Source: a virus. Taken from it: 64,000 bases of DNA. A program made the translations under genes and the position numbers. A model generated the notes under the pieces. It was not told the DNA's origin and did not search any database. It was given only the letters and a program-made list of their open reading frames with translations. Numbering within the stretch: the first letter of the stretch is position 1; every line of letters begins with the position of its first letter. Positions 14,969-59,934 of the stretch are shown one piece after another. The stretch covers positions 15,794 to 79,793 of the IMG/VR virus record IMGVR_UViG_3300037069_002825; one strand, given 5' to 3'.

Positions 14969-15913
14969 ATGCGCCGTGTACGGTCAGAGCAAGTGCCCGT
15001 CACACTCCCCTTCTACGCCGTGCTGAGCCGCGCTGAGGTGCGAAAGCTCCCGTGCCCCAAGTGCAACGCCGATATCGGCGGCAACTGTCTCGCCGACGAT
15101 GGGTCGGAGAGCGAGAGGAACCACACGGCACGTACCCAACTGGCGATTGAGCGCTCGCTCATCACGATCGACGATCACGGAAATCTCCTAAATAGCGGAG
15201 GAAATATCGTCGCGTCAGTGGCGGGGGCCTTGACAAGCCGAGGAGTGACGATAGTGTGGGACTACGGGGATTCTTCGTCTGAACTGCCAACTGCGTCAGA
15301 GCGCAATCCCCCAGAGCGAAGCGAATCCCCTCCCTCCCCTCGTAGTAGACGATCAGGGACAACACCGCGCGCACGTGTATGGGACCACTACGACCGTGTG
15401 ATCCTGAAATCGAGGGGAATGGACCGTCGGCTCGAAGTAAAGCGCGCCAAAGTCATTGACAAAGCGCTGGAGGTGCGAACAATCCAGCAGTGCTGCCGCG
15501 CTATCGATGGGCTCAATGTGTCAGCGCACCACAACGGTGTGAATGACAGGCGCAAAAAGTACCTCGACATCCGGTACGCCCTCGCCGGGATCGGCAAGGA
15601 AGGTGATGACGAACGAATCGACAAAATGGCGGAGAAAGCGCCGAGGCAGGACACGAGCACAGCCCAGGTCAGCGCCGGCTTCGTGACGGTCACCGAGTTC
15701 GTGGACAGCGTTCCGTCGGTCGTGGGCGAAAACGTCTGGACCCACGTGAAGAATGTTGAGCGCATGAGGAGAACGCCCGAGCATCTAACGCTACTATCCA
15801 TTGGACAGCAGTCCGAACGAGAGCTGCGGGATCGCTTTCGCGTGGAGGTCCTACTAACCGACGCGGATGGCAGGGCTTACCCCCGGCCGATGCTGAGACG
15901 CCTGGAGGCATGA
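14969..15913 (+). CDS. Putative replication initiator / replisome organiser with N-terminal Zn finger
   Basis: CPKC......C........NH..R, S/P-rich linker, helical C-terminal domain, upstream of DnaB; start uncertain. Confidence 0.45.
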   Translation: MRRVRSEQVPVTLPFYAVLSRAEVRKLPCPKCNADIGGNCLADDGSESERNHTARTQLAIERSLITIDDHGNLLNSGGNIVASVAGALTSRGVTIVWDYGDSSSELPTASERNPPERSESPPSPRSRRSGTTPRARVWDHYDRVILKSRGMDRRLEVKRAKVIDKALEVRTIQQCCRAIDGLNVSAHHNGVNDRRKKYLDIRYALAGIGKEGDDERIDKMAEKAPRQDTSTAQVSAGFVTVTEFVDSVPSVVGENVWTHVKNVERMRRTPEHLTLLSIGQQSERELRDRFRVEVLLTDADGRAYPRPMLRRLEA

Positions 15914-19471: not shown

Positions 19472-19792
19472 CTCGCGGCCGTGCAAAACGCCGGCTAGGT
19501 AGGAAACCAGCATCGCGTAGACCCAGCTCCTGACAGCGCCCTCGGCATCAGCTATCTCCTCGCGAAGGTTCAGATCGGACCTCTTGAACTGGGCCTCGAC
19601 CGCGACTATCAGCTCGTCGAAGCTCTCGCGTGTGGCGAGCATAATCGCTCCGCCTGTGGCGTTGATGTCTACTCCTAGCGCCGCACAGTTGCCCTCCAGC
19701 GCCGCGAGCGCGCTCGCGGCGTCCTCGTTGGACCACATCGGCCATCGCTGGATCTCCGCGAACAGTTCGGCGACCTGCTCCTCGGACTTCAT
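19427..19792 (-). CDS. Hypothetical protein
   Basis: ATGA coupling to the recombinase gene. Confidence 0.55.
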   Translation of the reverse strand: MKSEEQVAELFAEIQRWPMWSNEDAASALAALEGNCAALGVDINATGGAIMLATRESFDELIVAVEAQFKRSDLNLREEIADAEGAVRSWVYAMLVSYLAGVLHGRELGSDGKLGAVQPDN

Positions 19793-20805
19793 GCCACGAG
19801 CCCGAGACGCTCAGCGAACGCGCCTTCCGTCTGTTCGCCAACGCGCTGGATGTCGGCCTTTGCGATGCGTGCGTAGGCAAGGGTCTGATCGATCGAGCCG
19901 TGTCCCATCGTGATCTGGAGGTGCTCAAGCGGCATGCCGGCGCGCAGGCTCTCGGTTGCGTAGGTGTGACGGAACGGGTGCCAGTTCCAGACCTTACCGG
20001 AGAGGCTGATCCCGTTGTGCATCTGGTCGAGTGTCATTGGCGTGAGGTAGTCCGGTGGGTACAGCCGGAGCCACGGTCGGTTGTGGGTGACGCCGAGTCG
20101 CTCGCGGAACTCCAGCCATTCGGCGACGGCTAGGCGTGAATGGGCCATGTAGGGGACCTCGCGTTCCTTCGCCGTGCCCGGTCCCTGCTTGGCGGTGACG
20201 ACGATCACACCGTCGTTGTCGGGGTGAATCTGGGCCATCGTAATATGGCATATCTCGATGCAACGCAGGCCCTCCTCCAACGCGAGTGAGACCTGCGCCT
20301 CCAGCTGGTAGCGCCTCGCCCATAGCCAGATCCCCCGTTGGATCGGCGTCTTGCCCTCGTCGAAGCGCTTGAGTTTGCGAGAGCCCTTCCCGCTCAGCGG
20401 CGGTGACGGGTAACGCTCGGCCAGCTCGCGGTAGAAGGTGCGGATCTCGCTGGGTGTGTAGGGCTTCGGCGTAGACTGCGCGGAGCTGCCCCGTGGGTTC
20501 GGTACGGCTTTCAGGCGCAGGCGCAGCTCGGCGTCGATGAGTCCCGCTCTAAAGGCCCACGTGTGAAAGGCGCGAATCATCCCGTGCTTCGTTCGTACGG
20601 TGTTGGGGTGAAGACCACGGTCAATCTCGGCACCCATCCACTCCATGACCTCGCCGGGTTGCATCTCCACCAGCGGACGGTCATTCAGCACTTCCTCGGC
20701 AAAGCTCCCCAGCAGGGCAAGCTGTTCCTTGCGCCGCTGGGGAGTCACGCTGTTGGGCGCCATGTGCTCTTGCTCAAAGCGCAGCAGCAGCTCCTTGTTC
20801 GTCAT
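19789..20805 (-). CDS. Tyrosine recombinase (XerC/D-like)
   Basis: GLRCIE, AKQG, HPFRHTYA, MGH, TLAY catalytic set; SAM-like N-terminus. Confidence 0.92.
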   Translation of the reverse strand: MTNKELLLRFEQEHMAPNSVTPQRRKEQLALLGSFAEEVLNDRPLVEMQPGEVMEWMGAEIDRGLHPNTVRTKHGMIRAFHTWAFRAGLIDAELRLRLKAVPNPRGSSAQSTPKPYTPSEIRTFYRELAERYPSPPLSGKGSRKLKRFDEGKTPIQRGIWLWARRYQLEAQVSLALEEGLRCIEICHITMAQIHPDNDGVIVVTAKQGPGTAKEREVPYMAHSRLAVAEWLEFRERLGVTHNRPWLRLYPPDYLTPMTLDQMHNGISLSGKVWNWHPFRHTYATESLRAGMPLEHLQITMGHGSIDQTLAYARIAKADIQRVGEQTEGAFAERLGLVA

Positions 20806-42729: not shown

Positions 42730-43257
42730 ATGCTCGCGACGCGGCCGCCCGACCTCCTTCATCGGCTCTATCCGCTCAAGCGTGAACTGAACGAATATGC
42801 CGACAAATATGTCAATCAGGGGCCCGACGGTGAAATGGGTGCCGACTGGGTGGTCTTCGGCTCCTTCGTCTTGCTCCTCCACGGCCTGCGCGAGGGTATC
42901 GGCGATGTCGACGTGTTCGTGGCGCCCAGTCTCTGGGTCGCACTGTCCGGCACGCTGAACTGGCGCCTTCAGCTACCCAATCGTAAGGACCCTCCCCTCC
43001 TCGAACGCCTCGTCGGCGGGGTCCGCGTCCACGCTTTCTACGCTTGGACGACCAGCGAACCCGTCGTGACAGCCGAGGAGGCGCGCGAGCAAGCCGAGGT
43101 CGTCGGGGTGGGCGTCGATGCGTGGCCGTGCGTCCCCCTCTCGCTCATTCGCAGACACAAGATCGCCTCCCGGGAGTACAACCCCGGCAGTGTCGGTCAC
43201 AACAAGCACCGAGCCGACATCGCGGCAATCGACGGCTACCTCGGGGGTCAAGCGTGA
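42730..43257 (+). CDS. Pol-beta-superfamily nucleotidyltransferase
   Basis: WVVFGS..L.LHGL....GDVDVFV...; C-terminal K........K...D. Confidence 0.65.
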   Translation: MLATRPPDLLHRLYPLKRELNEYADKYVNQGPDGEMGADWVVFGSFVLLLHGLREGIGDVDVFVAPSLWVALSGTLNWRLQLPNRKDPPLLERLVGGVRVHAFYAWTTSEPVVTAEEAREQAEVVGVGVDAWPCVPLSLIRRHKIASREYNPGSVGHNKHRADIAAIDGYLGGQA

Positions 43258-43697
43258 TCGAGGTCTGGACCGACGGCGCCTGTTCGCAGAACCCGGGACC
43301 GGGCGGCTGGGCGTTTGTCATCCAGTCAGCCGAGGGGACAACGGAGGGCTCGGGCGGACACGTGTCTACCACAAACAACCGCATGGAGCTAATGGCTGCG
43401 ATCCAGGGCCTCGCCGAACTTCCCGACGAGAGCGGCCCGATCGAGGTGGTGTCCGACTCGGTCTATGTCGTCGAAGGCGCGCGGGTGTGGATGCACAAGT
43501 GGAAGGCCAGGGGTTGGCGCAGGGCTGGCGGACCCCTGATCAACGTGGACCTCTGGAAGTTGCTCCACGCCCAGGTCGAGCGACTGTCACCGACCTTCCG
43601 CTGGGTAAAGGGGCACGCCGGCCACGCGCTCAACGAGCGCTGTGACGGGCTGGCGGTTGCAGCCGCCCTTCGGGCTACGAGGAAGTTCTCAACCTGA
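43254..43697 (+). CDS. rnhA: Ribonuclease HI
   Basis: TDGACS.NPGPGGW, TTNNRMEL, SDS.YV, N.DLW, WVKGHAG...NERCD.LA. Confidence 0.95.
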   Translation: MIEVWTDGACSQNPGPGGWAFVIQSAEGTTEGSGGHVSTTNNRMELMAAIQGLAELPDESGPIEVVSDSVYVVEGARVWMHKWKARGWRRAGGPLINVDLWKLLHAQVERLSPTFRWVKGHAGHALNERCDGLAVAAALRATRKFST

Positions 43698-43833
43698 CAC
43701 TCGTCGCCCCGAGGTGAGCAAAAGTGGGGTCTCGGGAAACTCCCTTCTTCCTGCGTCTCCGCAATTAATCATAGCTCTTCGACTCGCTAGCGCTCGCCGC
43801 GCCGCCTACGGCTGGTAAGAAAACATAATCACC

Positions 43834-44097
43834 GTGTCAAATGTCCGCAACGAGCAGGTGAAACGCGATGTGCTCGCCTACGTCAGCTGGGTTTGGAGTC
43901 TCCAGGCGCGTGAGCGCGAACGCAACGATCCGGCGATCGACTGGCAGTCCGACATGAGCTGGGACGAGATAATGGCTTGCACCGGATGGGAGGGTCGGAA
44001 CCTGATCTCGGCGATGACGCTGGCGCCGGGCGACCTCACCGGCAGTTCCGAGATCAACGCGCAGCTCTACTGGCCCGACACACCGCCGCAGCGGTAG
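43834..44097 (+). CDS. Hypothetical protein
   Basis: Only plausible ORF in the interval. Confidence 0.4.
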   Translation: MSNVRNEQVKRDVLAYVSWVWSLQARERERNDPAIDWQSDMSWDEIMACTGWEGRNLISAMTLAPGDLTGSSEINAQLYWPDTPPQR

Positions 44098-44124
44098 ATA
44101 TGTAATGATCCCCAAATCGGTGCG

Positions 44125-44255
44125 GTCGGCCACTGATGTGCACATGGGAACCCACAAGCCGACAGCGCGAGCGAACCTTCCTGCGACCCCCACGCCACGG
44201 GCACGTGCGGGAATCCCGGTAGGTCGGTGTGGCGCCGACCCCCGGGCTCTCGCGT
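44125..44255 (+). ncRNA. Candidate structured RNA
   Basis: GTCGGC/GCCGAC; GCGCGAG/CTCGCGT enclosing TTCCTGC/GCGGGAA and CCCGG-GGTCGGTG/CGCCGACC-CCGGG. Confidence 0.35.
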
Positions 44256-44296
44256 CCACTGCCCCTCAGTGAGTGTTGGGGCCGGGGCGTCGAAGG

Positions 44297-44325
44297 TTGC
44301 GCCCCGCAAAGCTTCCCGTTATGAT
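44297..44325 (+). promoter_or_regulatory. Sigma-A-type promoter of the tRNA-like RNA
   Basis: TTGCGC-17 nt-TATGAT; predicted +1 near 44332. Confidence 0.7.
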
Positions 44326-44331
44326 GCGTGG

Positions 44332-44494
44332 GCGCCCCTAGCTCAGTTAGCCCAGCCGCTTGAGCTAAGCACCAACGTAGTGCTTAGCGAGGTGAAAGAG
44401 CACCCGTGGACGAAACGGGAGGTCGTCGGTGGTGACCAAGGCCTCGATTGGATCGATCTGGGCGGCGGAAACCAGGGCCAGCCGGCGGGGCGCA
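44332..44494 (+). ncRNA. tRNA-like RNA (ACG at anticodon position) with expanded D- and T-loops
   Basis: Acceptor GCGCCCC/GGGGCGC+A, TA 8-9, D stem GCTC/GAGC, anticodon stem CCCGT/ACGGG, variable AGGTC, T stem GTCGG/CCGGC. Confidence 0.7.
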
Positions 44495-44507
44495 CTCGAA
44501 GTGTTGT

Positions 44508-44885
44508 ATGATCCCACACGTGGATATTTATGACACCTACTCGGAGGTGCAGCGGCGGAAGGATAGGCCGATCTGGGAGGGCGAGGGCCCTTCCCGTGAG
44601 ATGATCGAGAAGATCAGCGCGACGTTTCGCGCACAGGTGGGTCGCGAGATCGCCTCGGCCGAGCTAAAGACGACCCTGGACGGCATGGGCTGGCTGATGA
44701 GAATGGCCGCCGAGGAGGACGTCCCGCTGGAGGCTCTGATGCAGATCGCCGAAGACATCGAAAGTAAAGCGCGGGCCAACATCGCGCGGACCTCGATCGG
44801 GGTTCACGACCAACTGTCAGTAGGCGTGGGCGCGGGCTTCTTCACTGGCCTGTGGGTCGGCATCCTATTCGAGCGGGAACGATGA
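44508..44885 (+). CDS. Hypothetical protein
   Basis: ATG just after the RNA gene; coupled stop. Confidence 0.5.
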   Translation: MIPHVDIYDTYSEVQRRKDRPIWEGEGPSREMIEKISATFRAQVGREIASAELKTTLDGMGWLMRMAAEEDVPLEALMQIAEDIESKARANIARTSIGVHDQLSVGVGAGFFTGLWVGILFERER

Positions 44886-45121
44886 CCCAGCTCCGCTACA
44901 AGCAGTACACCCGCGACGCGCTGCTACGCGAACTGGAACGGCATGCCGACTGGGACACGACGGGCGGCTACGCGCTGGCAATCCAACATTCGCGCACTAC
45001 AACCCGCAGATATCTCGACCAGCTCGTCAGGGAGGGACGCGTCGAGGTATGGAAGATAACCCATTGCGGTCGAGCCCCGGGACCGGGGTCGTCGATGCAC
45101 CTCTACCGGATAAAGATATGA
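44882..45121 (+). CDS. Small winged-HTH protein
   Basis: SRTTTRRYL..LV.EG.V...GR.......LYR. Confidence 0.6.
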   Translation: MTQLRYKQYTRDALLRELERHADWDTTGGYALAIQHSRTTTRRYLDQLVREGRVEVWKITHCGRAPGPGSSMHLYRIKI

Positions 45122-45237
45122 GCTGCATCGCCCTCTGCCTGCTGGTGGCCCTCGTAGGCGTCTGGTCACCCGGCGCCTACGTCGCACGCTCTGACGACCG
45201 GGCGGCGCGTCGGATGATGCGCTGCTATCGCCGCCGC

Positions 45238-45656
45238 TCACGTAGACGCTGGTAGCCACGCCTCACCAGCGTGAAGCTGGCGCTCCTGCGGTGTCGCCGG
45301 CAGGCATGCGGCCTCGTTGGCCTTGCGTAGGGCATCCTCGCCACCCTCGGCCATGATCTCGACGTTCTTCACCCAGGTATCGTCGGGGTCGTACATGGCC
45401 GCCTTCCACAGCTTCCTCACGTGACACCCATCGCCTCGTGGGCTTCGGCCTCAACCCGGGCCTCAGCCTCGGCTTCGGCCCGCGCCTGCACTCGGTAGTG
45501 GTTGGCGAGATCCTCCACCTCGGGGTAGAGCGAGCGCAGGTGGGCCTCGTAGTCATCCACTGCCGTTTGCAGCAGGATCGTCTTGCCACAGTGTGCGCAC
45601 ATCTCCTCGCCGGGGAGATTGATGCGTTCGCACCGGCAGAGCTGCGTGGGCGTCAT
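45238..45656 (-). CDS. Two small coupled minus-strand genes (45417-45656, 45238-45420)
   Basis: GTGA coupling; the first has C.C...CAHC. Confidence 0.4.
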
Positions 45657-45723
45657 GGTCGGGCCACCCTAACACGCTGTCGTGATGTTCTGTCCGAGCT
45701 GCATGGGACTGTCTGACTACGTT

Positions 45724-45827
45724 GCCCATGTGGCGGAATTGGTAGACGCAGCCGGTCTAAACCCGGACAAAGCTCGAAGCCTCCTGGCGGCGGCGACGAG
45801 ATGTGGGTTCGACTCCCACCGTGGGCA
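45724..45827 (+). tRNA. tRNA-Leu-like gene (TAA by stem register), 104 nt, atypical
   Basis: GCCCATG/CGTGGGC+A; D arm GGCGGAATTGGTAGACGC; T arm GTGGG-TTCGACT-CCCAC; ~35-nt variable arm. Confidence 0.8.
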
Positions 45828-45914
45828 CCTTGTAGACTCTAGGGGATGAAAAGTCCGCGAATTGCGAGAACAAGGACCATGGTCTCGCGCATCTTCACGT
45901 AGGCTTCCTAGATC

Positions 45915-46439
45915 GTGCCGTCGCCGCCAGGAAAACTCCACGTTCGCGAGCGCATAGTGCTCCAGGCGCTCGCGCACTATCGCAGCACGCCACTGACTCC
46001 GGCCCAGGTCCAGCAGCGCGCCGAACGTGACAGCAGCGTGCTGCTGATGCGGCGGGCCGTGCACACTACGCTCGGCGGCCTCGTGCAGGGTGGCTTCGCC
46101 AACGCGCTGCGCTACAGCGAGGGCTATCGATACACCATCACCGAGGACGGTCGCCGCGAGGCTTCGATGATCACCCCAGATGAGGTCGAGCCCTCCTTCG
46201 CTCGGATGGGGCTCGATCTACTGCTCGAACGATTCCCTACTCGCGACGTGGTGTCGATCGGCGATGGCAGCCGTTCTGGCGGCGTCTGGTTGGTCGTACG
46301 CTTCGCTGATGATGCGCGCTACGTGATCTGGCGGAACACGGGGCACATCTACGAGATGGACGATGATGGCGGTGTCGGTGACGACCCGGTGATCGAGAAC
46401 CCCGCCTACCAGTGCAACGATTGTTCAACCATAAGGTAA
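45915..46439 (+). CDS. PadR-like wHTH fused to an unknown domain
   Basis: V...L..LV..GF.......Y.Y.IT..GR. Confidence 0.55.
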   Translation: MPSPPGKLHVRERIVLQALAHYRSTPLTPAQVQQRAERDSSVLLMRRAVHTTLGGLVQGGFANALRYSEGYRYTITEDGRREASMITPDEVEPSFARMGLDLLLERFPTRDVVSIGDGSRSGGVWLVVRFADDARYVIWRNTGHIYEMDDDGGVGDDPVIENPAYQCNDCSTIR

Positions 46440-46440
46440 G

Positions 46441-47223
46441 GTGGGTAGAGCAGTGGATGAGGTAATCAGGGACAACAAACCCGGAGAGCGCTGGCACAGC
46501 GAGGGCGAGAGCTTCGAGCATTACGTTGAGCGCCAGTTCGTCTCCCTTCACGAAAGGCTGGACCGAATGGCCCCAGTAGAGCAGGAAATCGCCGCAGATG
46601 TGGACACGCTTGCACAGGTGATCCCACAGCTCGCCACGGACATCGGTGACCTTCACACGACCGTCACCGAAAAGGAAACCAAGCTCACAGAAGCAATCGC
46701 CGCCAAGACCGAAGATGACGCCGAGAAGGCCGCGCTGGAAGCGGAACTGAAAGCGATCCAGGGCCTGAAGCCGCAACTGGACTCGATCGTGCAGCAGGCG
46801 CAGAGCGTGGTGCAGCCGACGGGGGCGGGAGCGCCCGGCGCCGGAACATCTGCCGCAGCGCCGGGGGGGACGGTAGCGCCCGGCTTCGGAACATCCACCG
46901 CAGGTGCCGCACCGACTGGCCCGGGCACCAGTGCCGGGAGCAGTGTCGCGGCGGCGGCAGCTGGACCGGCCGCAGGGGAGAAGCCCAAATACACCTACCA
47001 CGGTCCCGACGTGACCAAAGTCGATTCGGTCGTCTGGATCGAGACGACGCTGGTCGACTCGGCTGGCGAAAAGGTGTGGGAATTCGCGAGCGACACACCC
47101 GGAGGCGCCCCCACGGGCGCCGAGGCCGGCGTGTGGGAGGTTGCGAGCCCCCCCTTCACCGACACCGCCGCAGTACAGGGCTCGTCGGGCCAGGAGGCAG
47201 TCGCGCCGCCCGTCGCTGGGTAA
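46441..47223 (+). CDS. Coiled-coil plus Ala/Gly/Thr/Pro linker protein (alternative start 46567)
   Basis: Composition; GAA/AAA codon style shared with structural genes. Confidence 0.55.
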   Translation: MGRAVDEVIRDNKPGERWHSEGESFEHYVERQFVSLHERLDRMAPVEQEIAADVDTLAQVIPQLATDIGDLHTTVTEKETKLTEAIAAKTEDDAEKAALEAELKAIQGLKPQLDSIVQQAQSVVQPTGAGAPGAGTSAAAPGGTVAPGFGTSTAGAAPTGPGTSAGSSVAAAAAGPAAGEKPKYTYHGPDVTKVDSVVWIETTLVDSAGEKVWEFASDTPGGAPTGAEAGVWEVASPPFTDTAAVQGSSGQEAVAPPVAG

Positions 47224-56438: not shown

Positions 56439-57079
56439 ACGACTACAGCGTCGAGCTGCCTGCGGGCGGCACTATGCACCTCCAGAGCGACGAGGAGGTC
56501 GAGATATGGGAGAAGGCGCTTGAGCGCTATCGCGAGGACTACACGTTCGCGAAGATGAATGACCTGTTCACCCTCGGTTCGTTGCTCCAGCAGCAGCTCA
56601 TCCTCTTCCGGGCGCAGGTGAGGATCAACGGCATGGAGCCCGTGCTCGACGCTAAGCGTGTGCCCACCGGCCAGTACCAGGCGGTCGAACTTGAACCGTC
56701 GCAGGTCTCGCACTACCAGAAACAGGTTATCGCCGCCAGTACGGAGATGCGTAACCTGGAGAAGCAGCTAGGAATCGACAAGGCCACGCGCGAGCAGGGC
56801 GGCACACACACCGTGGACAGCTTCCTCAGTACACTGAAGCGCGCGGCCCATGAGCGCGGAGTCCACATCTCTAAGCGCACACTGGAGTACGAACGTGTGA
56901 TAAACGACCTTCGCACCCGGCTGCGCATACTAAAAAACGGTGACGCAGAAGACCGGGCCTATCACAACATTAGCCCCAAGACGATCCTACTCTGGCTGGA
57001 CGATGAGTGTGACACACTCGCCAAGGTGGACCAGGAATTCAATCGCGATAAGGGCAAGCTCTTCGTGGGGAAGCTGTGA
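56423..57079 (+). CDS. Putative terminase small subunit
   Basis: Directly upstream of TerL; helical, ..LGI...R motif. Confidence 0.55.
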   Translation: MPAPVNDYSVELPAGGTMHLQSDEEVEIWEKALERYREDYTFAKMNDLFTLGSLLQQQLILFRAQVRINGMEPVLDAKRVPTGQYQAVELEPSQVSHYQKQVIAASTEMRNLEKQLGIDKATREQGGTHTVDSFLSTLKRAAHERGVHISKRTLEYERVINDLRTRLRILKNGDAEDRAYHNISPKTILLWLDDECDTLAKVDQEFNRDKGKLFVGKL

Positions 57080-59934
57080 TGGCCGTTAGCGAACTGGGGC
57101 GCATTGACGGGCAGAGGGACATGCGAGTCGTCGAGGGCGTCTGGGCGTTCAACGAGGAAGACTTCCTCCTCCTAGCCATGCTCGCAGATCCCATCTTCTG
57201 CGCCGAGCTGCTTTTCGAGAACCCAAAGAACCACACTCACGGCGGCTGCTATGTAGTGCTGGATTACCAGTATCCACTCTTTAGGCCGACCGAGTGTTAC
57301 GAGACGTTCCCCTGCGCGCGAAGCGTCGGCAAGACGGAGTCGCTCAAGGCGCGCTCCGTGAGCCACGCCTTCCGGAGACTCGGAGAGGATCTCCTCCTAA
57401 CTGCGCCCGAGCTGATCCACCTCCAGCCGCTGACGCAGGCCGTCGAATCCCGCATCACTTCCACCCGGCTGCTGAGGGAGTTCCTCAAGAAAGAAAACCA
57501 GCGCACGGGCATCGTCAAAACACCCGCCTTCCAGGTGGACTTTGTGGACAGCACCCGCATTATGGGCCGCATCCCGAAGGTTACGGGCACCGGGGTGAAG
57601 GGCATGCACGAGCCCGACATGATGATGGATGAGTGCTTTCCGGCGGGGTCACTGGTGCTGACGAAAACGGGACTTGTGCCGATCGAGAAGGTGAAGGTTG
57701 GCGAAATGGTGCTAACCCACAGAAACCGCTGGCGCCCCGTGACGGCGACGATGAAACGGCGTCGCGCAACTGTAATAGTCAAAGGGCAAGGACACACGGG
57801 CATCCGCTGCTCGGTGAATCACAAGTTTTGGAGCCTCACCACGCGTCGTGGAGCGCGAGAGACCGACGGGCATCAGCGAAAGGTCTACGGCGACCCGACG
57901 TTTACTCCGGCGATCGACCTAGCGCCCGAAGGTGGGTACCCCAAGGACGACGGTGCGCGATACGGTGCGCACTACTGGGCGACGCCCACTGTCGTTCCCT
58001 CCGTATCGGTCCCCGCAATGCCGGAGGTCAATTGGGACTGTGACGCCTTCTGGTGGCTCATGGGTGTCTACATGGCCGAGGGGTGCGTATCAAAGGCGGG
58101 CCAGTTGATCCTGGCTGTCCATCGCGACGAGGTGCGGGAGGTTAGCCGCGCTCTCGACGAGGTCGGAGTCGAATGGAGCGTGTATTTCGATAACGATAGC
58201 CTCGGCGCGCGAATTCAGCTAAGAGGTGTGGCTGCCAAAAGCTACGCAAGGTTCATGTGTGGAGAGGTGGGGCGCATCGCGGCACAGCATCAGGTCCCGG
58301 TGTGGGTGTGTAGCTCGGGGGGGCGATGCCGATCGCTAGTGCTCGATGGTTATCTTTGGGGCGATGGATCAGCGGACCCCGACGCTCGCTATGCGCCAGG
58401 GCGCTGGAAAGCCGCGTGCAGGGACAAGCAGCTCGCCCTCTCTATCAAGCTGCTTGCACAGACTCTGGGCTACTCGGTCGCACTGCACTGGACGCCGCCG
58501 GAGCAAAAAGAGATTCGGGGCAGGCCCGTGAAGGGCATGGGCTATTACCAGATCGTCGGCTCGCTCAAGTCGTTTACCCACGAACGGGACGGCCAGCGCT
58601 TCTCCCTGGTCAAGGACATCCAGTTGACCGGGGAGACCGAGGAGCTATATGACCTGGCGGTGGCCGACGATCATAGCTTTGTGTGTGAACAGACAATTGT
58701 CTCGAATTCGCAAGACTACCCCGAGCGAGGCTTCATCGAGATACACGAGACGGTGATGAAGGACCACGTGGACGCCACCGGCAGATACGACTTCACATAT
58801 CACCTCTACGGCGTGCACTCAGCCGTACAGGGCGGTCGGTTCGCGAAGCTCGCCAGCAGCGGCGACTTCAAGGTGACGGCCGTCACCGCGATTATGAAGC
58901 CGGGGTGGAATAAGCACGAGAAGGCGGCTGCGGCTGCAATGTACGGTGGCACAAACGCCCCCGACTATCGTCGTAACATTCTGGGCGAGGCTGGCACGGG
59001 GGCCTCGCAGTTCTTCGTGACGAGCCGTCTGATGGCGTGTGTCGACCAGGACGAGGAGTCGACCTACAACCAGTTGGAGTACCGGGCGCAGGAGTTCCAG
59101 ATCGAGGAGGTGGACAAACTCATCCCAGCGGGCGGTGACGTCGGCAACATCCTCGACCTGCCTGACAATCTCGGCCAGCAGGTATATGGCGGGATGGACG
59201 TCGGGCTCGTCACCGACCCCACGGTGATCGTCATCTGCGCGGTGCTGCCTGATAAGAATAAGAAGGCGCGCCTCAAGCTCGTGCGGAAGTTTCACCTCTG
59301 GCGCTTCCGCGAGACCCAGATCCGTCAGTGCACCTACGCGATAGCGCGCAAGTACGGGCTCACCCTCAGGGCGTTTGGCCAGGACATCACCGGGCTGGGG
59401 CTGCCGCTCTACCAGGCGATGGGCGATGACGAGAAGTGCCCCGAGCACCTGCGCGAGGTCTCCAAGGGCTACGTATTCAACGCCAAGATGCCGATCGCCG
59501 TGGACCCTAACTTCGTCTCAAAGCAGGCCGGTGAAATGGTCGACCAGTTCGGCCACGTCGTCGAAGAACGGCGCAACGACTGGACGGGCAAGATCGAACT
59601 GGTCGCAAAGATGACCATGATCGAGGCATCGACCCGCTACCTACGCGGCTTCGTCGACAACAGCTTCCTCCAGCTGCCGTTCGACCCAAGACTGGTGAAG
59701 GACATGCAGGGTGAGACCGAACAGCGCGTGCGCGCCATGGGCGCCAGTCACCTACGGAAGAAGCCCAACGCCTTCCACGAACTGGATGCGCTGCGTGCGC
59801 TCGCCATGGCCTACAAGGCCGGCGAGATCGAGGAGATGGTCTACGCACGCTCCGAGGGGCCGATTATGGAGAAAGCGGTCGACCTCACCGGCACGGGGGA
59901 GATGTCCATCGGCGGCCAGGAACTGATGCAGTGA
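57076..59934 (+). CDS. terL: Terminase large subunit containing an intein
   Basis: ARSVGKT Walker A, MMDE|SQD Walker B, GGMDVG...DPT, D.TGLG, H.LDA.R. Confidence 0.9.
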   Translation: MMAVSELGRIDGQRDMRVVEGVWAFNEEDFLLLAMLADPIFCAELLFENPKNHTHGGCYVVLDYQYPLFRPTECYETFPCARSVGKTESLKARSVSHAFRRLGEDLLLTAPELIHLQPLTQAVESRITSTRLLREFLKKENQRTGIVKTPAFQVDFVDSTRIMGRIPKVTGTGVKGMHEPDMMMDECFPAGSLVLTKTGLVPIEKVKVGEMVLTHRNRWRPVTATMKRRRATVIVKGQGHTGIRCSVNHKFWSLTTRRGARETDGHQRKVYGDPTFTPAIDLAPEGGYPKDDGARYGAHYWATPTVVPSVSVPAMPEVNWDCDAFWWLMGVYMAEGCVSKAGQLILAVHRDEVREVSRALDEVGVEWSVYFDNDSLGARIQLRGVAAKSYARFMCGEVGRIAAQHQVPVWVCSSGGRCRSLVLDGYLWGDGSADPDARYAPGRWKAACRDKQLALSIKLLAQTLGYSVALHWTPPEQKEIRGRPVKGMGYYQIVGSLKSFTHERDGQRFSLVKDIQLTGETEELYDLAVADDHSFVCEQTIVSNSQDYPERGFIEIHETVMKDHVDATGRYDFTYHLYGVHSAVQGGRFAKLASSGDFKVTAVTAIMKPGWNKHEKAAAAAMYGGTNAPDYRRNILGEAGTGASQFFVTSRLMACVDQDEESTYNQLEYRAQEFQIEEVDKLIPAGGDVGNILDLPDNLGQQVYGGMDVGLVTDPTVIVICAVLPDKNKKARLKLVRKFHLWRFRETQIRQCTYAIARKYGLTLRAFGQDITGLGLPLYQAMGDDEKCPEHLREVSKGYVFNAKMPIAVDPNFVSKQAGEMVDQFGHVVEERRNDWTGKIELVAKMTMIEASTRYLRGFVDNSFLQLPFDPRLVKDMQGETEQRVRAMGASHLRKKPNAFHELDALRALAMAYKAGEIEEMVYARSEGPIMEKAVDLTGTGEMSIGGQELMQ
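57634..58707 (+). mobile_element. 358-aa intein with LAGLIDADG homing endonuclease
   Basis: CFPAGSLV, block B CSVNHKF, MGVYMAEG and LDGYLWGDG, YDLAVADDHSF...VSN|S. Confidence 0.93.

Follow-up and report, generated by a model that had tools for sequence, protein, structure and literature searches.

The genome of an uncultured soil phage contains an element of 163 nucleotides (nt) that may encode a non-decoding, structured RNA derived from tRNA-Arg(ACG), that is, a phage tRNA mimic (44332–44494, plus strand). Coordinates refer to the window, i.e., the whole 64,000-nt stretch of DNA that was analysed, which corresponds to positions 15794–79793 of the 79.8-kilobase (kb) IMG/VR virus record IMGVR_UViG_3300037069_002825. 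The mimic reading is tentative, with a rough probability of 0.4, and is favoured over that of a young pseudogene. Descent of the element from tRNA-Arg(ACG) is well supported, because its signature bases, its block matches with ordinary bacterial genes and the ARAGORN assignment of its trimmed core all point to that gene. In addition, the element is not a canonical decoding tRNA, because it has neither U33 nor the T-loop motif nor a normal D loop. We infer that the element is transcribed, stable and active as a mimic; the case rests on one sequence and is at present a lead, not a discovery.

Anatomy of the Element and Descent From tRNA-Arg(ACG)

An initial annotation of the window described a tRNA scaffold with every stem present at canonical spacing, and direct reading of the sequence finds each stem where it had been placed. 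All 21 stem pairs (7 + 4 + 5 + 5) are Watson-Crick, with 2 nt between the acceptor and D stems, 1 nt before the anticodon stem, a 5-nt variable region, and a T stem that abuts the acceptor stem. The acceptor 5′ strand GCGCCCC (44332–44338), which is the same in ordinary tRNA-Arg(ACG) genes, is followed by U8 and A9 (44339–44340) and by the 5′ strand of the D stem (GCTC, 44341–44344); the 3′ strand of the D stem (GAGC, 44398–44401) precedes A26 (44402). The anticodon arm (44403–44419) consists of a 5-base pair (bp) stem (CCCGT/ACGGG) and the 7-nt loop GGACGAA, with ACG at 44410–44412, and leads to the variable region AGGTC (44420–44424), as in ordinary tRNA-Arg(ACG). The T stem is formed by GTCGG (44425–44429) and CCGGC (44482–44486), after which come the acceptor 3′ strand GGGGCGC (44487–44493) and the discriminator base A73 (44494). 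CCA is not encoded, the bases after A73 being CTC.

All three loops depart from those of a canonical tRNA. The D loop (44345–44397) is 53 nt long, begins with AGTT as in a normal tRNA-Arg and ends with GGTGAAA, which possibly supplies G18, G19 and A21. It contains a perfect 9-bp hairpin (44364–44372/44380–44388) with a 7-nt loop, CAACGTA, and a weaker outer helix (44357–44361/44390–44394), both evident from sequence and folding. The 7-nt T loop is replaced by a 52-nt insert (44430–44481) that is without a TTCRA motif and is predicted to form an imperfect hairpin. The features that build the elbow of a canonical tRNA, namely a 7-nt T loop with T54-Ψ55-C56-R57-A58 and a D loop of 7–11 nt with G18G19, are thus absent. 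In the anticodon loop, G32 and G33 replace the usual C or U at 32 and U33, and A37 and A38 are present. A side observation concerns the loop of the D-loop hairpin (44373–44379), CAACGTA, which carries a central ACG like the true anticodon loop GGACGAA; this resemblance was seen post hoc and has a chance probability of about 1/50.

The origin from tRNA-Arg(ACG) suggested by the initial annotation is borne out by comparison with bacterial genes. A search pattern consisting of the acceptor and D stems retrieved ordinary 74-nt bacterial tRNAs, mostly tRNA-Arg(ACG), from Acidobacteriota, Leucobacter and others. Identity in the acceptor and D stem is imposed by this pattern, but AGTT, A21, R26, ACG with the adjoining AA, AGGTC and the overall spacing were free to vary. 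The ordinary genes read GCGCCCC, TA, GCTC, AG(T/C)TGGATA, GAGC, R, the anticodon stem enclosing CTACGAA, AGGTC, the T arm, GGGGCGC and A, and the element departs from these blocks only at C32U33, in the central part of the D loop and in the T loop. Specifically, the genes from Acidobacteriota (L046, L042) and Leucobacter (L045, L052) have in common with the element the acceptor stem, U8A9, the D stem, AGTT, A21 and R26, as well as ACG with A37A38, AGGTC and A73. They differ from it in having a D loop of 9 rather than 53 nt, TTCGAAT in place of the 52-nt insert, and CU in place of G32G33, and the element, unlike them, is undetected by ARAGORN and Rfam. When constructs with the two loops cut back to normal length were submitted to ARAGORN, tRNA-Arg(acg) was reported in 102 of 400 (score 105.5), and a control in which the trimmed core was given a canonical T loop scored 117.1.

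The spacing of the stems proves nothing when taken alone, because simulated genomes give comparable numbers of scaffolds. In a scan for the four stems with G-U pairs allowed and the D and T loops free at 7–70 nt, bare scaffolds with a perfect acceptor stem numbered 3 in the real genome and 1–5 in each of 10 simulated genomes, and those with at most one acceptor mismatch (6 of 7 pairs) numbered 36 and 21–40, respectively. The canonical spacing pointed out in the initial annotation is therefore real but at chance level, and becomes distinctive only in combination with signature bases. Seven of the eight signature bases are found in the element (U8, A14, R15, A21, R37, G53, C61), only U33 being missing; a perfect scaffold with seven of eight is unique in the genome, the simulated maximum is 4–6 (10 simulated genomes), and the other perfect-acceptor scaffolds of the real genome have a signature score of 1.

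As the initial annotation had anticipated, standard tRNA finders miss the element. ARAGORN reports no tRNA in the window, and allowing introns or relaxing its settings produces nothing but large numbers of false calls. The Rfam tRNA model (RF00005) finds nothing over 44332–44494, either at the gathering threshold (29 bits) or at E ≤ 10 in a 3.5-kb search, and a neighbouring tRNA reaches 45.7 bits in the same searches. The Rfam search for an already described RNA family likewise gave no family that matches the element. Phage tRNA-derived genes can thus escape standard tRNA finders.

The Mimic Reading and Competing Explanations

A selected tRNA look-alike is favoured because the stems are perfect while the three loops are altered, and because both inserts lie exactly in loops. 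Since two of the seven anticodon-loop bases have changed, a gene in neutral decay should also have lost pairing at some of its 42 stem bases. The initial annotation's argument that intact stems speak against simple decay holds with respect to long neutral decay (21 of 21 pairs are kept, all three loops are altered), and the pattern of stems and loops appears to fit selection on structure better than neutral decay.

In the proposed mechanism, the elbow-forming D and T loops would have grown into two arms of about 50 nt and U33 would have been lost, with the acceptor, the discriminator and the ACG loop retained. Transcription would proceed from the element's own weak promoter, with the first transcribed base at or near G1, such that 5′ processing would not be needed. 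As a mimic or sponge, the RNA might then occupy a factor that recognises the acceptor end, the Arg(ACG) anticodon stem-loop, or both; a host nuclease or nucleotidyltransferase that targets tRNA in defence, TadA, and arginyl-tRNA synthetase are candidate targets. RNase P and RNase Z recognise the tRNA elbow. Lacking both this elbow and U33, the RNA is unlikely to be cleaved well by RNase P or RNase Z, accommodated by EF-Tu and the ribosome, or used in decoding. CGT, CGC and CGA are read by tRNA-Arg(ACG) after deamination of A34, and together they make up 66% of the phage's Arg codons, which makes this tRNA a worthwhile target to protect or to mimic; a mimic could matter if the host attacks tRNA-Arg(ACG). 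A more specific version, which must be called a long shot, has the elbow-less RNA made from its own promoter and presenting ACG in both of its 7-nt hairpin loops, GGACGAA (anticodon arm) and CAACGUA (D-loop arm), thereby soaking up, outside translation, a host factor with specificity for the anticodon loop or acceptor end of tRNA-Arg, such as a colicin D-type anticodon nuclease, a MenT/AbiEii-type nucleotidyltransferase or TadA. If true, this would be an RNA-decoy form of counter-defence distinct from the known replacement tRNAs.

The promoter proposed in the initial annotation, TTGCGC-17-TATGAT, is present (44297–44325, plus strand) but weak. The −35-like TTGCGC (44297–44302) matches TTGACA at three of six positions and overlaps the upstream arm of a 10-bp inverted repeat, the −10-like TATGAT (44320–44325) has a 5/6 match and ends 6 nt before the first acceptor base, and a consensus scan makes no promoter call in 43600–46500. 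TATGAT occurs in only three copies on the plus strand of the window, two of which flank the element. A further candidate from the region before the element, a 'multibranch RNA' at 44098–44331, was rejected, as it folds no better than shuffled sequences (z −0.29).

Several observations weigh against a functional mimic. In addition to the weakness of the promoter, there is no terminator after the element. The minimum free energy (MFE) fold is not a cloverleaf: it retains the acceptor stem, the anticodon hairpin and both insert hairpins but loses the D stem, and its energy of −75.4 kcal/mol compares with −70.0 kcal/mol when the cloverleaf is enforced, a cost of 5.4 kcal/mol (z = −2.7 for the fold of the whole element). 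The initial annotation had emphasized secondary structure within and between the inserts. Of this, the 9-bp hairpin of the D loop stands as a perfect helix (z = −2.9 against shuffles), but an equally good fold is reached by 19% of equally long stretches of the genome. The two sub-hairpins ascribed to the T insert are no more stable than shuffles (z = −0.7), and the complementarity of GCCCAG in the D insert to CTGGGC in the T insert is at chance level, since 34% of shuffled pairs contain a 6-nt Watson-Crick run and 23% match its duplex energy; the 'new paired domain' that this pairing was taken to form is hence unsupported.

Homologs, sequence variants and covariation are all absent in the collections searched, so that selection on the inserts is putative. 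The region has no match by blastn or megablast among 50,697 phage records. Seven DNA patterns, including the D-loop junction, the frame GAGCA..GGACGAA..AGGTC, D-loop- and T-loop-expanded tRNA-Arg frames, and the D hairpin, yielded no homolog in IMG/VR, JGI metagenomes and bacterial genomes; the matches were only chance coding DNA, tandem partial tRNAs and unrelated odd tRNAs, and the pattern of anticodon arm plus T stem gave 0 matches in bacterial genome contigs. The phage has one detectable relative, G001 (106 kb), which is the sole IMG/VR record that shares its DnaB (71% identity; DnaB search with a single sequence and with an alignment). No counterpart of the element was found in G001 or G002 by BLAST and scaffold scan, and the inserts have no other copies in the phage's own genome (G000) or in G001. 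Conservation among related phages, as would be expected of an RNA of the T4 species 1 and 2 type, is accordingly lacking across G001, IMG/VR and JGI metagenomes. The stretch is present in six soil-metagenome DNA runs, as letter-identical contigs with zero sequence variants, and no RNA run is among its listed holders. Finally, a tRNA frame without an elbow may be unstable, because a Spinach aptamer engineered into the D or T loop of Escherichia coli tRNA-Tyr left no detectable RNA in cells, whereas inserts in the variable loop were stable and active (PMC5397188).

The strongest competitor, possible although less probable than the mimic, is a young tRNA-Arg(ACG) pseudogene, i.e., a once-functional phage tRNA that acquired two insertions and a change of the anticodon loop, is functionless and has not yet eroded. 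The singleton status of the element, with conservation nowhere in the collections searched, is consistent with this explanation, as are the T-insert structure and D–T pairing that do not rise above chance, the loss of all the canonical motifs (U33, T loop, compact D loop) and the destabilising effect of artificial D- and T-loop inserts on tRNA in vivo (PMC5397188). The acceptor 5′ strand is duplicated 33 nt upstream as TGCGCCCCGC (44298–44307, plus strand); this copy, which overlaps the proposed −35 box and is a perfect 10-nt complement of 44485–44494, resembles a rearrangement scar. However, a pseudogene does not readily account for 21 intact stem pairs out of 21 alongside alteration of two of seven anticodon-loop bases, or for two inserts placed exactly in loops, for which a probability of about 1% is estimated with two random insertions in a 76-nt gene. 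Nor would it explain why a non-coding stretch of 420 nt is kept when phage genomes are compact, why the −10 box is correctly placed, or why working-looking tRNAs with structured inserts are kept in relatives (see section The Phage, Its Relative, and Neighbouring Genes).

The duplicated acceptor strand also bears on an improbable alternative, in which transcription from the upstream promoter, or read-through, would continue into the downstream gene and the element would be a cis-acting leader or processing element of that mRNA, its tRNA-like fold being an entry site for RNase P, RNase Z or RNase E, or a stabiliser. The downstream gene (44520–44885, plus strand) starts with GTG and encodes a 121-amino-acid membrane protein. 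No terminator is found between the element and GTG 44520, and the 3′ end of the element forms a better helix with the TGCGCCCCGC copy than with the true acceptor strand. The resulting 10-bp inverted repeat (44298–44307/44485–44494) closes the whole region, and dominates the predicted fold, once upstream sequence is included in longer transcripts. The upstream copy would be expected to out-compete the acceptor stem in transcripts that start further upstream, and would provide a leader with an alternative fold; the repeat could be such an alternative fold or a rearrangement scar. Yet shuffled sequences fold as well as the extended region does (z −1.0), the elbow by which RNase P and RNase Z recognise tRNA is missing, and the downstream gene has a TATGAT of its own, 7 nt before GTG 44520 (44507–44522 region, plus strand), positioned for a leaderless start. 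It is probably expressed from that GTG as a leaderless mRNA.

Rather less credence still is due to a precursor of a decoding tRNA-Arg from which both inserts are removed as unconventional introns, a possibility raised in the initial annotation as two intervening sequences. Excision of 44349–44390 would leave a D loop of AGTT plus GGTGAAA with G18G19 in place, the trimmed core is named tRNA-Arg(acg) by ARAGORN, and the CGN codons of this tRNA account for 66% of the Arg codons. The idea fails at the T loop, where no single excision yields TTCRANY, the best trimmed loops being TGGTGAC and TGGTGAG; furthermore, G32G33 would stay, no intron or ribozyme family of Rfam matches, and there is neither an RNA ligase nor a splicing endonuclease among the proteins scanned. 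No bulge-helix-bulge or other intron fold was recognised (geometry by eye only). Inserts of about 45 nt are too short for group I introns. Introns in the D and T loops occur in archaea and some eukaryotes and are not known to occur in bacteria or their phages.

Least probable of all is a DNA-level element (an attP core, or a site of protein binding in which tRNA sequence has been reused) or a cloverleaf that arose by chance: a tyrosine integrase is encoded, phages of this kind often integrate into tRNA genes, and scaffolds alone are common by chance, but the integrase gene (19789–20805) is 24 kb away with no tRNA 3′ fragment or T-arm-like sequence beside it, the T loop of the element is disrupted whereas an attP core should correspond to an intact one in the host, and the match to tRNA-Arg signature bases is far beyond chance. 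A coding reading was rejected, in line with the initial annotation's treatment of the interval as RNA. The roughly 420-nt stretch 44098–44519 is without the GC3-high, GC2-low pattern of the neighbouring genes, and a 94-amino-acid open reading frame (ORF) over the element belongs to no protein family; among 1.84 billion representatives, it finds only itself and one weak partial match outside the element. The interval is hence not conserved protein-coding sequence.

The Phage, Its Relative, and Neighbouring Genes

The window has a G + C content of 64% and encodes, among other proteins, DnaB, a RuvB-like ATPase, a PD-(D/E)XK nuclease, RNase HI, an intein-bearing reductase-like protein, and the tyrosine integrase (minus strand; PF00589, 50 bits). 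Because of this integrase, the phage is probably temperate. The idea of an archaeal virus, which came from a DUF7130 match and the GC content, was rejected, since the replication genes include a bacterial-type DnaB. G001 shares few further genes with the phage, which on sequence evidence is nearly an orphan. The intein-bearing protein (57076–59934, plus strand; 952 amino acids) is a reductase-like host protein interrupted by Hint, intein-splicing and LAGLIDADG domains.

A second odd tRNA lies at 45724–45827 (plus strand). It has a Leu-type body and 45.7 bits with the Rfam tRNA model, and is missed by ARAGORN. Its anticodon loop is TCTAAAC (C33, anticodon UAA), with a G27-A43 mismatch and a 32-nt insert in the variable arm. 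A decoding role is doubtful, because the TTA codon is nearly unused (3 occurrences in about 20,000 phage codons). G001 has a homolog (L019:1501–1623) with a 49-nt variable arm, C33 and the loop CCTTTAA (anticodon UUU); the arm sequences of the two differ, and their acceptor stems differ by compensatory changes. G001 also carries a 92-nt tRNA-Glu(UUC) (L015:1501–1592, minus strand, i.e., G001:55682–55773; Rfam 56.9 bits) with a 20-nt D-loop insert that contains a 5-bp hairpin, and with GG, U33 and the canonical T loop kept. Like the element, this is a natural phage tRNA with a structured D-loop hairpin, from the only detectable relative; unlike the element, it has one insert, at another D-loop position and of non-homologous sequence. 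On the basis of the tRNA-Glu(UUC) and the pair of tRNAs with giant variable arms, structured expansions of tRNA loops seem to be tolerated, and are probably selected, in this phage group.

Further observations on G001 concern its tRNA region and a false call. Within L019:1440–1850, a motif, TCCGAAGC followed after 2–3 nt by ..TCTAG, occurs three times, two copies being upstream of tRNA genes and the third between them; the TCCGAAGC motif may be a phage-specific promoter of G001, and none is found in the 64-kb window. A candidate 'tRNA-Gly with 89-nt intron' of G001 proved to be a false call. Separately, the pattern search happened upon an unrelated AT-rich metagenome contig (L162:2370–2480), whose tRNA-like gene keeps a canonical acceptor and T arm but has a long insert in the vicinity of the anticodon and variable region.

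Downstream of the element, the 121-amino-acid protein has a C-terminal membrane segment, GAGFFTGLWVG, that is kept in two distant relatives, and one relative that is 46% identical (P0002) is found on a Logan contig. Upstream, an orphan ORF of 175 amino acids (42730–43257, plus strand) contains a G-S...D-x-D nucleotidyltransferase-like motif and overlaps by 4 nt the start of the RNase HI gene (43254–43697, plus strand; Pfam 1e-36). This ORF has no sequence match in Pfam, PHROG or PDB and no homolog among 5.8 billion proteins, and its single-sequence AlphaFold model is unusable (pLDDT 42). A structure look-up in ESM Atlas alone points to nucleotidyltransferases of the AbiEii and aminoglycoside-2″-adenylyltransferase types (TM 0.65–0.69), as a lead only. 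AbiEii/MenT enzymes act on the 3′ ends of tRNA, modifying them (PMC7450476; PMC10435456). It is conceivable that the product of this ORF is linked to the two odd tRNAs, which are 1–2.5 kb downstream of it.

Comparison With Known Systems

Among described classes, the closest is formed by small, stable, tRNA-like RNAs from the tRNA regions of phages. The species 1 and 2 RNAs of T4 (rnaC, rnaD) and the tRNA-like stable RNAs of T5 resemble the element in being phage-encoded with tRNA-like features; they measure about 120–160 nt and are located near tRNA genes. T4 RNAC and RNAD are small stable tRNA-like RNAs of the phage tRNA region whose function is still unknown (PMC9697503). From these T4 RNAs onwards, phage RNAs that are shaped like a tRNA but do not decode have lacked an explanation. 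A relation in sequence between them and the element is not to be expected. In the element, unlike the T4 RNAs, the anticodon loop has its normal size and a true anticodon, and it is the two elbow loops that are expanded; whereas expression and processing of the T4 RNAs have been demonstrated, the element is known from its sequence alone.

Defences that target tRNA are escaped or neutralised by phage tRNAs whose anticodon loops are altered (van den Berg, 2023, PMC10264068; PARIS, PMC11464382; retron effectors, PMC11555353). There, as in the element, a phage carries its own copy of a tRNA in heavy use, and the anticodon loop has changed (G32G33 in the element; C33 in its Leu-like neighbour). In those studies, the phage tRNAs are proposed or shown to be working replacements, not decoys, and a decoy mode is not shown (PMC10264068; PMC11464382; PMC11555353). 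Such tRNAs can be charged, have a normal elbow and replace the cleaved host tRNA, whereas the element almost certainly cannot decode and could act as a decoy only.

Spinach-tRNA fusions provide an artificial parallel, with a tRNA frame of about 180 nt that, like the element, holds a folded extra domain in a loop (PMC5397188). The stability and activity of the variable-loop fusions fit with the neighbouring tRNA, which is expanded in its variable arm, being functional.

Another non-decoding RNA that borrows part of the tRNA fold is the Y RNA YrlA of bacteria and phages. YrlA keeps the D/T elbow and an acceptor-like stem and replaces the anticodon arm; the element, which has no match to Y RNA in Rfam, does the opposite. 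By keeping the acceptor end and a true anticodon loop and dropping the elbow, it would separate the two halves of tRNA recognition. If expressed and stable, the RNA would be a candidate RNA decoy and could serve as a natural probe of which host or phage factors recognise tRNA-Arg when its elbow is missing.

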